Source: Escherichia phage vB_EcoM_EP32a. Taken from it: 64,000 nucleotides of DNA. Under the pieces are notes generated by a model. The model made no database searches. It was given only the letters and a program-made list of their open reading frames with translations, and had not been told where the DNA came from. Below are positions 8,447-32,714 of this stretch, piece after piece. The stretch lies in sequence record OR544954; one strand, written 5' to 3'. A program made the translations under genes and the position numbers. Position 1 is the first letter of the stretch. Each line of letters starts with the position of its first letter.

Positions 8447-8520
8447 GGCCCTGTAGCTCAATGGTTAGCAGCAGTCCCCTCATAAGGGAAAGGTTACCAG
8501 TTCGAATCTGGTCTGGGTCA
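8447..8520 (+). tRNA. tRNA with CAU anticodon (Met, or Ile-AUA if lysidine-modified)
   Basis: Manual cloverleaf fold: acceptor GGCCCTG/CTGGGTC, T-arm ACCAG-TTCGAAT-CTGGT, anticodon loop CTCATAA; D-stem imperfect. Confidence 0.7.
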
Positions 8521-8526
8521 TATATT

Positions 8527-8603
<77 letters not shown>

Positions 8604-22382: not shown

Positions 22383-22964
22383 ATGGCTAGTTTAATTTTT
22401 ACATATGCCGCTATGAATGCTGGTAAGTCTGCTTCATTACTTACTGCCGCACATAACTATAAAGAACGTGGCATGGGTGTATTAGTTCTTAAACCGGCTA
22501 TTGATACTCGCGATTCAAAAGGTGAAATAGTCTCTCGTATTGGTATTCGTCAGGATGCCAATATAATTACAAAAGACATGGATATCTTTGAATTCTATAA
22601 ATGGGCTGCAGCACAAAAGGATATTCACTGTGTATTTGTTGACGAAGCTCAGTTCTTAACTACTGAAAAGGTGTATCAACTTAGTCGTATTGTTGACGTA
22701 TACAATGTGCCGGTAATGGCATATGGACTACGAACAGATTTTAAAGGTAATCTATTTGAAGGTTCTCAAGCATTAATGGCTATTGCCGATAAGCTTGTTG
22801 AACTTAAAGGTGTCTGTCATTGTGGTAAAAAGGCCACAATGGTAGCTAGAGTCACGGAAGACGGACTTCCAATTACAGATGGCAGCCAAATTGAAATTGG
22901 TGATACCGATAGATATGTGTCATTATGCCGGAAGCATTGGAATGATTTGACAGGGTTGTTATAA
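22383..22964 (+). CDS. tk: thymidine kinase
   Basis: P-loop MNAGKSASLL; zinc ribbon CHCGKKAT...CRKHW; 193 aa as in T4 Tk. Confidence 0.9.
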   Translation: MASLIFTYAAMNAGKSASLLTAAHNYKERGMGVLVLKPAIDTRDSKGEIVSRIGIRQDANIITKDMDIFEFYKWAAAQKDIHCVFVDEAQFLTTEKVYQLSRIVDVYNVPVMAYGLRTDFKGNLFEGSQALMAIADKLVELKGVCHCGKKATMVARVTEDGLPITDGSQIEIGDTDRYVSLCRKHWNDLTGLL

Positions 22965-24178: not shown

Positions 24179-24358
24179 ATGACCCGTGAACAAGCTAATA
24201 AATTGATGGACCTTATCCATGACTTACGTGAAGCCGATTCAGATTTGAATGATGTAGCTTATCATGCGGTAAATGATAACGGAGACTTTTATGAAAATCA
24301 GGTTGATGCTTGCCAGAATGCTTTGGTGAATTTTGTTGAAACTTTAATTGGTGAATAA
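24179..24358 (+). CDS. small hypothetical protein (59 aa)
   Basis: ATGA-coupled to a 36-codon ORF at 24072-24182; below the track cutoff. Confidence 0.3.
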   Translation: MTREQANKLMDLIHDLREADSDLNDVAYHAVNDNGDFYENQVDACQNALVNFVETLIGE

Positions 24359-24359
24359 T

Positions 24360-24890
24360 ATGAAAACTGTAATTGAAACAACCGAGTTGTTTGGCGATTT
24401 ATGTATCGAAAAACGTGGTTATGCTTACGTTCTGACACAAGAAGATGATGCTGTTACTATTCTTCCTATGGAACTGGACAAGATTTTGAAACTCAATCCG
24501 CCCGGCCATGCATCTGTAATTAACATTGATGAAGACCTTCAAGTTCGTTTTTATCACGGTCTTTATAGTGGGGTTAATATCGAAACAGAAGATGAATGCC
24601 TTTCTATCAATAATTGGAAAACATTCGTCACTAAGGTGAAAGAATTCATAGAATCTGAAACTGCCAAAAAGGCCAAACTTCAATGGGCTAAATGCCGTAA
24701 TGCTTTTATTACAAATCAGGACCGCCCTGACTATACAACAGTCCTAGGCGTTAATCCTTCTTATGAAGACGGTGATGTCGTAGTTATTCGCCAAATTGAT
24801 GACCTTCGTCAACATATCGTTACATTAGACAAAGATGAAGCAGTTGCTCTTAAAGCTTATCTTGATTCTATTATCCCGACTTTGAAATAA
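24360..24890 (+). CDS. hypothetical protein
   Basis: 176-aa ORF, TAATATG coupling. Confidence 0.5.
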   Translation: MKTVIETTELFGDLCIEKRGYAYVLTQEDDAVTILPMELDKILKLNPPGHASVINIDEDLQVRFYHGLYSGVNIETEDECLSINNWKTFVTKVKEFIESETAKKAKLQWAKCRNAFITNQDRPDYTTVLGVNPSYEDGDVVVIRQIDDLRQHIVTLDKDEAVALKAYLDSIIPTLK

Positions 24891-24900
24891 GGAAATTATT

Positions 24901-25374
24901 ATGATTATCAATGAAAACTCTTGGCACTTTAAAATTTATGCCGCGTTCAATAGTACGTGGAATCGTCCGAAAACATTATGTGCTTATTTTTGGAAAACGC
25001 TAATCCCGGTATTGGCTGCTTCAATTATTGGATTTGCGATTTTAGCAGCAGTCACAATCATTGGCCAGGAAATTTTAACTAAATTCTTTGTTTTTAGCAG
25101 TCTATGGACATTAGTTCCAGCCTCAATTGGTGTAGGCATTTTGATTGTAGCAGTCATGGCTTTTATTGCTACCGGGGCGGTAATTGGTCCGTCTTGGTTG
25201 TTAGACAAATATAACGACAGAAAATATTATAAAGAAATTGAGTTCATTGCACAAAACCAAGAACGAATTAAAAATGGACTTGAGCCTATTGAACGTAAGA
25301 AATCATTAATAGGTGAATACCTTAAAGCTCGTAAAGAAAAAGTCTGTCCTACTCTTGAATATAAGGCTAAATGA
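24901..25374 (+). CDS. membrane protein
   Basis: TM segments LIPVLAASIIGFAILAAVTIIG and LVPASIGVGILIVAVMAFIATGAVIG. Confidence 0.5.
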   Translation: MIINENSWHFKIYAAFNSTWNRPKTLCAYFWKTLIPVLAASIIGFAILAAVTIIGQEILTKFFVFSSLWTLVPASIGVGILIVAVMAFIATGAVIGPSWLLDKYNDRKYYKEIEFIAQNQERIKNGLEPIERKKSLIGEYLKARKEKVCPTLEYKAK

Positions 25375-26360
25375 TGAAAACAATTATGAAAGGCTACTTT
25401 GGTAGCCACCTTTATGGAACGTCTACTCCTGAATCTGACGTCGATTTTAAAGAAATTTATGTCCCTCATGCTCGTGATATCTTGACCGGTAACGTTAAAG
25501 AACACATGAGCAAGAACACGAATAACACATCTTCTAAGAACACAAAAGACGACGTGGACCACGAGTTGTATAGTCTCAAATATTTCTTTAAACTAGCTGC
25601 GGATGGTGAAACCGTCGCATTAGATATGCTTCACACTCCACAAAGTCTAGTAGTTAAATCTGATTTGCCTGATGTATGGAAGTATATTCAAGATAACAGG
25701 TCTCGTTTCTATACCACTAACATGAAATCTTATTTAGGGTATGTCCGTAAGCAAGCTTCTAAATATGGTGTCAAGGGTTCTCGACTGGCTGTTCTTCGTC
25801 AAGCCCTTAAACGTTCTAATGAATGGGGACGATACTTTGATAATGGTGCCGTAATTCGTTTATCACATATGAAGAACGTTCTGCCTGTAGGTGAATTTGC
25901 TTTGTGGGTTGAAACCGAAAACGAGAAAACAGGTAAGCAAACATTCTATAATCTGTTAGACCGTAAATTCCAAGACACATTAACCAATAAAGAGTTCAAT
26001 GCCATCCTGGTTAAACTAGAAGAGAACTATGGTGAACGTGCTCGTAAGGCAGAAGCTAACGAAGGTATTGACTGGAAAGCATTGAGTCATGCATGTCGTG
26101 GTGGACTTCAATTATTGGAAATTTACAAAACCGGCGACCTGGTTTACCCACTTCAGGATGCTCCGTTTATTCTCGATGTTAAGCTTGGTAAACATACGTT
26201 TAAAACCGTACAAGAATTCCTAGAAGATATCGTTGACCAAGTTGAACATGCGTCAGAACAAGCTGCCAAGAACGGTATGCAACAAAAAGTAGATATGAGT
26301 TTCTGGGATGATTTCCTTGAGCAAGTCTATCTCGAAAATCATAATTCTTACTATAAATAA
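25371..26360 (+). CDS. nucleotidyltransferase-fold protein (Pol-beta superfamily)
   Basis: N-terminal GSHLYGTSTPESDVDF fits the hG[GS]-x(9-13)-[DE]h[DE] minimal NTase motif; 329 aa. Confidence 0.55.
   Translation: MMKTIMKGYFGSHLYGTSTPESDVDFKEIYVPHARDILTGNVKEHMSKNTNNTSSKNTKDDVDHELYSLKYFFKLAADGETVALDMLHTPQSLVVKSDLPDVWKYIQDNRSRFYTTNMKSYLGYVRKQASKYGVKGSRLAVLRQALKRSNEWGRYFDNGAVIRLSHMKNVLPVGEFALWVETENEKTGKQTFYNLLDRKFQDTLTNKEFNAILVKLEENYGERARKAEANEGIDWKALSHACRGGLQLLEIYKTGDLVYPLQDAPFILDVKLGKHTFKTVQEFLEDIVDQVEHASEQAAKNGMQQKVDMSFWDDFLEQVYLENHNSYYK
26352..26359 (+). promoter_or_regulatory. late promoter TATAAATA
   Basis: Exact octamer 33 nt upstream of the ATG at 26392. Confidence 0.5.
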
Positions 26361-26391: not shown

Positions 26392-26673
26392 ATGAAAAAA
26401 TTAGCAATTGGTTTATTCGCAGTAATGATGGCATTCTCTGTTGGTGCTACCACGGGTGCAGCCAGCGGTAGTGCAGGAGCTGGTGGTAACCAGTCTTCTG
26501 GGCCTTCCAACGGTTCGGTAAATGCATCACATTCTCAGGGTATTGAGAATATCAAATCGAGCTATATTAATAGCACGGCCGGACAAGCAACTGAAGCATG
26601 GTCAAAGGGTCGAGTAGTTACTCGCTCCGTATTCTGTGATATGCCTAATTATGTTGCTAAGTGCGATAAGTAA
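26392..26673 (+). CDS. small secreted Gly/Ser-rich protein
   Basis: Signal peptide MKKLAIGLFAVMMAFSVGA; low-complexity G/S/A/N region. Confidence 0.5.
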   Translation: MKKLAIGLFAVMMAFSVGATTGAASGSAGAGGNQSSGPSNGSVNASHSQGIENIKSSYINSTAGQATEAWSKGRVVTRSVFCDMPNYVAKCDK

Positions 26674-26697: not shown

Positions 26698-26791
26698 AGG
26701 GGGTTAAAATATTTTTAAAAAGTAGTGTACATGCTTTTAGGATATGTTATTATAGACCTATCGAAACGAAATGAGTAAATTGGAGAATAAA

Positions 26792-27772
26792 ATGTTCAAC
26801 GTTCAAATCAAAAAAGGTATCTATCGTAATAACGAAATCTCTGGTTCTTATGTTGCCACAAAGACCTGGTTCCCGGCAAAGCTTAATCCTGAATGTTCCC
26901 ACTTAGGTGATGGTAAAATTTTCGTTATGATTGATGGTTCTGAACGTGGAGTATGGGTCTTCAAATCAGACATCGTAATGGAAGGAGTTGAGACGTCGCC
27001 AGTTGCAGTTGTTGAAAGCACTGAAGATATGAAAACTCGTATCAACAAACGCTTTAAAGTAATGAACATGATGACGAATGGCATTATCGATGGCAAAATT
27101 CGTTCACTCATTATTTCAGGTGCAGCTGGTATTGGTAAGACGTATTCTCTGGATAAAGCACTTAATAATGCTAATGATAATGGTTTCATCAAATACAAAA
27201 GCATTAATGGTAAAATCTCCGGTATTGGCCTTTACGAACAACTTTGGCTCAACCGTGATGCAGATAGCGTTCTCTTAATCGACGACGTTGATGTATTCTC
27301 GGATATGGATATCTTAAACCTTCTTAAAGCAGCATTAGATACCGGAGATAAACGCAAAGTTTGTTGGAGCACTGCGTCATCTTATCTCGAGGATAAGGGT
27401 ATTGATAAAGAATTTGAGTTTGAAGGTACTATCGTTTTCATTACAAACGTTGATATCGATAAAGAGTTAGAACGGGGTTCGAAACTTGCTCCACACCTTC
27501 AAGCTTTAGTATCTCGTTCAGTGTATCTCGACCTTGGAGTACACTCTAATGAAGAGATTATGGTTCGAGTTGAAGATGTAATATTATCTACTGACATGAT
27601 GCAGAAACGTGGTCTGACGGATGCAGAAACGTATAAAGCATTGTCCTGGATGAAGGCTAACGTATCTCGTCTTCGCAATGTATCATTACGTACGGCTCTT
27701 TATGTAGCAGATTTTATTTCAACCGATAAAGATGGTTGGGAGGAAATCTCGGAAGTTACTTTACTGAAATAA
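26792..27772 (+). CDS. P-loop ATPase (AAA-like)
   Basis: Walker A GAAGIGKTY, Walker B LLIDDVD; start at the ATG after the aatTGGAG leader. Confidence 0.6.
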   Translation: MFNVQIKKGIYRNNEISGSYVATKTWFPAKLNPECSHLGDGKIFVMIDGSERGVWVFKSDIVMEGVETSPVAVVESTEDMKTRINKRFKVMNMMTNGIIDGKIRSLIISGAAGIGKTYSLDKALNNANDNGFIKYKSINGKISGIGLYEQLWLNRDADSVLLIDDVDVFSDMDILNLLKAALDTGDKRKVCWSTASSYLEDKGIDKEFEFEGTIVFITNVDIDKELERGSKLAPHLQALVSRSVYLDLGVHSNEEIMVRVEDVILSTDMMQKRGLTDAETYKALSWMKANVSRLRNVSLRTALYVADFISTDKDGWEEISEVTLLK

Positions 27773-32045: not shown

Positions 32046-32458
32046 TGAGATATAGCCTTCGTTGTTTTATCGCAGCTTTAGTTTTTGCTATTATTCCATT
32101 CATTTGGAACAGCCAGAATACTTACATGGAAACTAAAGTAATTCCCGTGGAGGTAGTGGAATTAATCTCAGGCCAATCTACAGGAAAATATTCTAAATTA
32201 GAATTTATTGCAGTCTATAAAGATGAGCAAGGACGAGTTTTTGACAGGCGTATATCACCGTCGTTTTATACGCTTCTGAATAAAGGTGATACGATAGCTA
32301 TAGAAATTCGTGAGATGGATATCAAACAAACTACTAAAGATAACTTGATTTGGTTCTTTGGTACAGTGTTGTTGGTTTCTATCTGTATCACAGGTTTTAT
32401 TACATGTATTGTATTTGGCATTGCATATTTAATCGATGAAAGGAAAAATAATGTTTAA
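32045..32458 (+). CDS. membrane protein
   Basis: N-terminal and C-terminal TM segments. Confidence 0.45.
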   Translation: MRYSLRCFIAALVFAIIPFIWNSQNTYMETKVIPVEVVELISGQSTGKYSKLEFIAVYKDEQGRVFDRRISPSFYTLLNKGDTIAIEIREMDIKQTTKDNLIWFFGTVLLVSICITGFITCIVFGIAYLIDERKNNV

Positions 32459-32714
32459 AGTGTACGGGTATGACTCTACTATTCATAAATGCATTTATTG
32501 CGATAATGCGAAACGATTGCTGACTGTTAAGAAACAGCCGTTCGAATTCATTAATGTTATGCCAGAAAAAGGTGTTTTTGATGATGAGAAAATTGCTGAG
32601 CTTCTGACTAAGCTCGGGCGTGAAACAAAAGTCGGATTGACAATGCCACAGGTATTTGCTCCTGATGGAACTTTGATCGGCGGATTTGACCAACTGCGAG
32701 AATATTTTAAATGA
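32451..32714 (+). CDS. nrdC: glutaredoxin NrdC
   Basis: MFKVYGYDSTIHKCIYCDNAKRLL... matches T4 NrdC; CxYC active site; 87 aa. Confidence 0.9.
   Translation: MFKVYGYDSTIHKCIYCDNAKRLLTVKKQPFEFINVMPEKGVFDDEKIAELLTKLGRETKVGLTMPQVFAPDGTLIGGFDQLREYFK

Follow-up and report, generated by a model that had tools for sequence, protein, structure and literature searches.

The T4 NrdC.11 ortholog of a Mosigvirus is an RlaP-family nucleotidyltransferase with a proposed role in tRNA repair

RNA repair as a means of viral counter-defence was first exemplified by the PseT/RnlA system of phage T4, and RloC-type nucleases have been proposed to beat this pathway through nucleotide removal. The RlaP nucleotidyltransferases (NTases), named by Burroughs and Aravind for their association with RNA ligase genes, are predicted to restore the lost nucleotides of broken RNA ends ahead of ligation (summarised in PMC7824862). 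The addition of one or two NMPs is known only for the enzymes of Pseudomonas fluorescens and P. aeruginosa, which are encoded in rtcB-rlaP-rtcA operons; they act on the 3'-OH of RNA and not on DNA or protein, with Mn2+ as the optimal metal and little NTP specificity (PMC12776372). On a mimic of a cleaved tRNA they act preferentially at the broken anticodon loop rather than at the acceptor end, and they partly rescue the aminoacylation of a tRNA that is short of one nucleotide (PMC12776372).

Phage T4 NrdC.11 has already been linked to these enzymes. Orthologs of nrdC.11 were matched to a nucleotidyltransferase domain (COG3541) in a study published in 2006 (PMC1524935), and a December 2025 preprint puts the T4 protein in the RlaP family as an uncharacterised member of SSN cluster 5 (PMC12776372). 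The protein described here, the NrdC.11 ortholog encoded by a 64,000-nucleotide stretch of the Escherichia phage vB_EcoM_EP32a genome (OR544954; hereafter the window), is thus already known as the product of a widespread T4-like gene assigned to a named family.

The gene, its neighbors and its homologs

The gene and the two markers that flank it are:

25371..26360, + strand: coding sequence of the nrdC.11 ortholog, an uninterrupted ORF of 329 amino acid residues with a TAA stop
22383-22964: thymidine kinase gene (tk)
32436-32714: nrdC, with a glutaredoxin/thioredoxin fold

Since tk and nrdC lie on either side of the ORF, the placement of this gene in the tk-nrdC region by an earlier note on this DNA was correct. 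The ATG at 25371 shares the tetranucleotide ATGA with the stop of the preceding gene. The next ATG, at 25374, would give a protein of 328 residues and is the start used by most database homologs; it could possibly be the true start of the window gene as well. Scans for promoters and terminators around the gene gave results no better than those for shuffled sequence.

The overlapping gene directly upstream (24901-25374) encodes a 157-residue multi-pass membrane protein (phrog_944). It is preceded by a gene (24348-24890) for a 180-residue protein of the T4 y05I-like "putative transcription factor" family, in which both halves are matched (PF24449 at 3.5e-41 and PF24448 at 1.3e-19) and which, judged from the T4 map position alone, is the MobD.1 counterpart. 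Downstream lies a 93-residue ORF (26392-26673) with a signal peptide, a Gly/Ser/Ala-rich region, a phrog_2243 assignment and a weak YbgS-like match. The next gene (26771-27772) is the homolog of T4 nrdC.10 and encodes a 333-residue P-loop protein (GAAGIGKT) of PHROG 1250, a group of unknown function; its matches to AAA_22, AAA_16 and STAND-NTPase models are all sub-threshold. At some distance, positions 8447-8603 hold two neighboring tRNA genes, tRNA-Met (CAT; 8447-8520), which is without an encoded 3' CCA, and tRNA-Arg (TCT), which has an encoded terminal CCA.

T4 NrdC.11 (AAD42629.1) is the product of the same gene in the same tk-nrdC position, likewise with the nrdC.10 ATPase gene downstream; the two proteins share 77.7% identity over 100% coverage (tblastn), with lengths of 336 (T4) and 329 residues (window). 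The earlier note had stated that the T4 core includes no protein of such a size that carries the motif. Because T4 encodes this syntenic protein at the same map position, the claim that there is no T4 counterpart is wrong. The two loci differ in their details. A MobD homing endonuclease gene stands directly upstream in T4, whereas the membrane-protein gene occupies this place in the window. The nrdC.10 gene follows nrdC.11 directly in T4, and in the window it is also the next homolog, but the small signal-peptide ORF has been inserted ahead of it, in a place where T4 has no gene. No nrdC.10 homolog takes this position in Vibrio phage CZ01. The T4 nrdC.11-mobD.3 block is dispensable in the laboratory (PMC9825161), a property that fits an accessory counter-defence role without lending it positive support.

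The DNA shows 98% identity to numerous RB69-like (Mosigvirus) coliphages, among them APCEc01 and the O157 typing phages. The NTase itself is 100% identical to the vB_EcoM_EP32a entry and 99% identical to its counterparts in APCEc01 and in the O157 typing phages. Homologs were found by tblastn in 1520 phage records, T4 included, with query coverage of 80% or more in 1445 of these. When 1.84 billion cluster representatives were searched exhaustively, 3241 relatives were found at E <= 1e-3, of which 739 reach E <= 1e-30; the best 150 of the 3241 are mostly 300-370 residues long and align from end to end. A homolog search with the window protein itself gave matches of 98-100% identity only, which are unusable for an alignment, and the diverse set used for alignment and modeling was obtained by querying with the ortholog from Vibrio phage CZ01.

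A Pfam search matched residues 7-207 to PF10127 (RlaP, "RNA repair pathway DNA polymerase beta family") with 49.8 bits (E 4.9e-13), above the gathering cut-off of 23 bits, and the protein also matches PHROG 388 ("nucleotidyltransferase") at E = 1.3e-125. T4 NrdC.11 scores 46.6 bits and the bacterial long forms score 53-56 bits against the same Pfam model, with a match confined to the N-terminal part (residues 3-138 at most); the ortholog of the KVP40-like Vibrio phage CZ01, at 22.1 bits, falls slightly under the threshold. The window protein matches no CD-NTase/SMODS, OAS, CCA-adding enzyme or poly(A) polymerase model in Pfam or NCBIfam and none of the PADLOC defence models. Comparison with the CD-NTase, MNT, OAS and poly(A) polymerase families, which the earlier note had proposed as a check, gave no match above threshold, and the family is RlaP. 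We conclude that the window ORF is securely identified as the Mosigvirus (RB69-like) ortholog of T4 NrdC.11, a two-domain RlaP-family NTase of the Pol-beta superfamily.

In many deposited phage genomes the NrdC.11 ortholog is labeled "thioredoxin." This looks like an error propagated from the gene name nrdC.11, and the label, as it stands in many GenBank entries, is wrong for a protein of this type.

Active site and predicted fold

The conserved motifs and predicted domains of the protein are as follows; the domain limits are those of an AlphaFold2 model:

25401..25448, + strand: residues 11-26, GSHLYGTSTPESDVDF, with the G11-S12 nucleotide-binding turn and the D23-x-D25 metal-binding carboxylates
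25551..25565, + strand: D61-V-D63-H-E65, on the beta-strand formed by residues 62-68
26070..26099, + strand: D234-W-K236-A-L-S-H240-A-C-R243 (DWKAxSHAxR), a near-invariant motif in the C-terminal half
25371..25775, + strand: predicted N-terminal alpha/beta NTase domain (approximately residues 1-135), with strands at 3-10, 24-31, 45-49 and 62-68
25986..26354, + strand: predicted C-terminal helical domain (residues 206-328)

The first of these motifs conforms to the Pol-beta pattern G-[GS]-x9-13-D-x-[DE] and, given the PF10127 and PHROG 388 scores, the assignment to the Pol-beta NTases is well beyond chance. The ORF and the N-terminal motif reported in the earlier note are real, and its proposal of an NTase fold holds. 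Across 338 diverse homologs that were aligned, G11 is present in 336, S12 in 316 (Ala in 18), D23 in 332 and D25 in 333. D63 is Asp in 326 of the 338 and Glu in nine; in the hhalign comparison its partner is an Asp that canonical RlaP conserves ("lDinGWD"), and D63 is probably the third catalytic carboxylate. The Pol-beta signature (G-S turn, DxD and third Asp) is present and aligns with the GS...DYD...lD of canonical RlaP. The active site of the NrdC.11 ortholog is intact, and its residues are retained in approximately 98% of the homologs; loss of the catalytic acidic residues, which the earlier note had named as evidence against its proposal, is not seen in these proteins.

A second block of conservation is found in the C-terminal half, where K236 (336/338), H240 (335/338), R243 (338/338), P260 (337/338) and G273 (335/338) are retained, as are D234 and W235. 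The DWKAxSHAxR motif is probably an NTP- or RNA-binding helix that faces the cleft. Its region is paired by hhalign with the "K.Y.YAlR" of canonical RlaP, in an alignment that is not significant and is suggestive only.

The AlphaFold2 model, built from a 123-sequence alignment (mean pLDDT 91.9, pTM 0.79), shows two domains joined by a long helix (residues 119-155) and, after it, a small beta insertion (residues 177-201). With 329 residues and two predicted domains the protein is not the "minimal" nucleotidyltransferase of the earlier note, and against the MntA model it scores 12.9 bits, where the cut-off is 60. It shares with canonical RlaP the Pol-beta NTase domain carrying GS, DxD and D, and both kinds of protein occur in cellular RNA-repair operons. 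The modeled layout may also correspond to that of the PfRlaP crystal structure, in which an N-terminal NTase domain and a helical C-terminal domain form a cleft. The window protein is about 60-70 residues longer, and only residues 3-131 can be aligned with the canonical short form at the profile level (hhalign, 93% probability); the C-terminal half gives no significant alignment with canonical RlaP by the same method (0.2% probability). This divergent half, with its own DWKAxSHAxR motif and the modeled beta insertion, sets the two apart, and the sequence of the C-terminal domain is peculiar to the NrdC.11-type clade, for which we use the term long RlaP.

In fold searches with the model, the C-terminal domain resembled the KNTase C-terminal and HEPN domains. 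Kanamycin nucleotidyltransferase/ANT(4') and the NTase-like structure 3C18 share 9-10% identity with the window protein at TM-scores of approximately 0.25-0.4; the substrates of KNTase/ANT(4') are small molecules, and these enzymes show no family-level sequence match to the window protein. Hailong HalB (PDB 9dbh) shares 16% identity. HalB is a protein of 217 residues that makes DNA oligomers and has the HalA channel as its partner in a host defence system (PMC13276650), whereas a HalA-like partner is absent here. No CD-NTase or OAS structure was found among the best 50-60 fold matches listed per search. Sequence and profile searches of a PDB copy without the PfRlaP crystal structure gave no relevant match.

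Membership in several other NTase groups was considered and rejected. Minimal NTases (MNT/MntA antitoxins) have about 100-140 residues and a HEPN toxin gene beside them, and the two-domain window protein has no adjacent HEPN gene. Membership in the Hailong HalB group fails for want of a HalA membrane effector gene alongside, in the CD-NTase/OAS group for want of a model match or of a fold match among the best 50-60 listed, among the CCA-adding enzymes for want of a family match and among the aminoglycoside NTases for want of a family-level sequence match.

Gene context of the long RlaP form

Canonical RlaP proteins score 175-268 bits against PF10127, as opposed to 22-56 bits for the NrdC.11-type clade. 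Because this clade is divergent, the link to RNA repair was examined for the clade itself. The DWKAxSHAxR motif was used as a pattern to scan 185,579 species genomes, which yielded 168 full-length cellular relatives. Eighty of their loci, bacterial or archaeal and with products of 33-52% identity, were fetched, and the neighboring genes were clustered and identified with Pfam. An RNA-repair-type neighbor is present in 28 of the 80 loci if a canonical RlaP paralog is counted, and 15 of the 80 have an RtcB, Pnkp, Hen1 or Ro60-like gene within 6 kb. By gene, RtcB occurs in seven loci, Pnkp in seven, Hen1 in five and a Ro60-like vWA protein in four, while a T4-type kinase-phosphatase is a neighbor in one. 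As a rough estimate, inferred rather than computed, fewer than one locus would be expected to have such neighbors within 12 kb by chance.

In at least 15 of the 80 loci a canonical RlaP of approximately 255-290 residues is encoded directly downstream of the long form on the same strand, the reading frames often overlapping or abutting. Two of the loci illustrate the arrangement:

Asticcacaulis, L052:2088-7802: Hen1, Pnkp, long RlaP and short RlaP, in this order
Nitrosospira, L033:1558-9161: Ro60-like protein, RtcB, an unidentified ORF, long RlaP, short RlaP and Hen1

Long RlaP is likewise followed by short RlaP in loci L079 and L082. That cellular relatives of NrdC.11 sit in RNA-repair operons is new here; the tandem long/short pairs may have been described already.

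The phage loci are of a different kind. No homolog of RtcB, Pnkp, Hen1 or Ro60 is found in the whole 64-kb window, T4 pseT and rnlA lie approximately 78-81 kb from nrdC.11, and three distant homologs on jumbo-phage or metagenome contigs have no ligase or RNA-repair gene as a neighbor. At the level of whole genomes, close Mosigvirus relatives that possess this gene also carry rnlA (FL18, AV111) or pseT (mar005P1). The numbers of phage records with NrdC.11, RnlA and PseT, respectively, are 286, 287 and 286 for the host genus Klebsiella, 83, 83 and 83 for Shigella, 69, 69 and 70 for Acinetobacter, and 56, 56 and 56 for Enterobacter. This co-occurrence by host genus is weak evidence, because any near-core T4-like gene would match equally well.

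A proposed role in tRNA fill-in and the alternatives

We think it rather probable that the NrdC.11 ortholog is an RlaP-family NTase which carries out tRNA fill-in beside PseT and RnlA/RnlB. By comparison with the characterised Pseudomonas enzymes, it would employ two metal ions, probably Mn2+, and would add one or two NMPs, template-free, to a broken RNA 3'-OH. Its presumed partners during infection are the PseT polynucleotide kinase/phosphatase and the RnlA/RnlB RNA ligases, encoded elsewhere in the genome. Where a host anticodon nuclease of the RloC type excises nucleotides from a tRNA, the ortholog would put nucleotides back, and ligation of the refilled molecule by the phage enzymes would return a full-length, usable tRNA. 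The fill-in hypothesis is already in the literature, and the operon contexts of the long form strengthen it. Four points weigh against this role. Phage nrdC.11 is not adjacent to ligase or kinase genes in the window, in T4 or on the three jumbo-phage contigs; only the N-terminal part of approximately 130 residues aligns with canonical RlaP; many bacteria retain the long form beside the characterised short one, as if its function differed; and the characterised RlaP has little NTP specificity, which raises the question of how the correct nucleotide would be restored. The RNA 3'-OH chemistry is itself attributed to the protein by analogy with relatives whose detectable sequence similarity to it is confined to the catalytic domain.

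Another target for an enzyme of the same family and with the same RNA 3'-OH chemistry is conceivable, albeit unlikely. Such an enzyme might repair or complete the CCA ends of tRNAs, either phage tRNAs without an encoded CCA or acceptor ends trimmed by host nucleases, or it might tail mRNA or tRNA fragments for decay. The window tRNA-Met, which has no encoded CCA, speaks for the CCA version, but the host provides a CCA-adding enzyme of its own, and the protein matches neither the CCA-adding nor the poly(A) polymerase families. In total E. coli RNA the Pseudomonas RlaP labeled full-length tRNAs and rRNAs beside fragments, which favors a wider range of targets, yet on the cleaved-tRNA mimic it favored the acceptor end less than the broken anticodon loop, which argues against CCA repair (PMC12776372). 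Tailing for decay is difficult to reconcile with the cellular operons, where the partners are ligases and end-healing enzymes and not decay factors.

The earlier note had suggested a nucleotide-signal synthase or a modifier, and we regard both a signal enzyme (CD-NTase, OAS or cGAS-like) and an enzyme that modifies proteins or small molecules as very improbable. A modifier might AMPylate host HEPN RNase toxins in the manner of MntA or adenylylate small molecules in the manner of KNTase. The modeled likeness to KNTase/ANT(4') and, in the C-terminal domain, to HEPN points in this direction, and PrrC and RloC, both anticodon nucleases, are themselves HEPN enzymes. The MntA score, however, is far below its cut-off, the Rx4-6H motif of HEPN domains is absent (the conserved motif being K-x3-H-x2-R), and E. 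coli proteins are not substrates of RlaP (PMC12776372). Signaling is opposed by the lack of SMODS, OAS and CD-NTase matches in Pfam, NCBIfam and PADLOC, and of CD-NTase or OAS structures among the best 50-60 fold matches listed. Among the functions which the earlier note had listed, "nucleic-acid tailing enzyme" comes nearest to the best-supported role, and signaling is left without support.

Equally remote is a HalB-like synthase whose product, a short oligo(d)A or some other oligonucleotide, would serve as a decoy or disturb host defences that sense such molecules, for example by holding a Hailong-type channel closed: the likeness to HalB, at 16% identity, is limited to the NTase-plus-helical fold that both have, RlaP adds no more than one or two nucleotides and does not extend DNA (PMC12776372), the cellular relatives lie beside RNA ligases instead of a HalA-like partner, and PADLOC gives no match.

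To return to tRNA fill-in, bacteria often hold both RlaP forms next to each other, which suggests that the long form does something that the short form does not; adjacent long and canonical paralogs in one operon hint at non-redundant roles. A tentative extension, which we hold to be doubtful, is that long RlaP constitutes a functionally distinct subfamily and the missing third component of the PseT-RnlA system, perhaps specialised in tRNA- or nucleotide-specific fill-in. Its basis is the position of the long form directly upstream of canonical RlaP in operons with Pnkp/Hen1 and RtcB, together with its own DWKAxSHAxR motif; T4-like phages carry the long form only. If this third component exists, T4 tRNA repair would be effective against anticodon nucleases that excise nucleotides, such as RloC. 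Should NrdC.11 indeed restore the nucleotide, a third enzyme would join the textbook pathway, and a function would be assigned to a gene that more than 1500 sequenced phages conserve.
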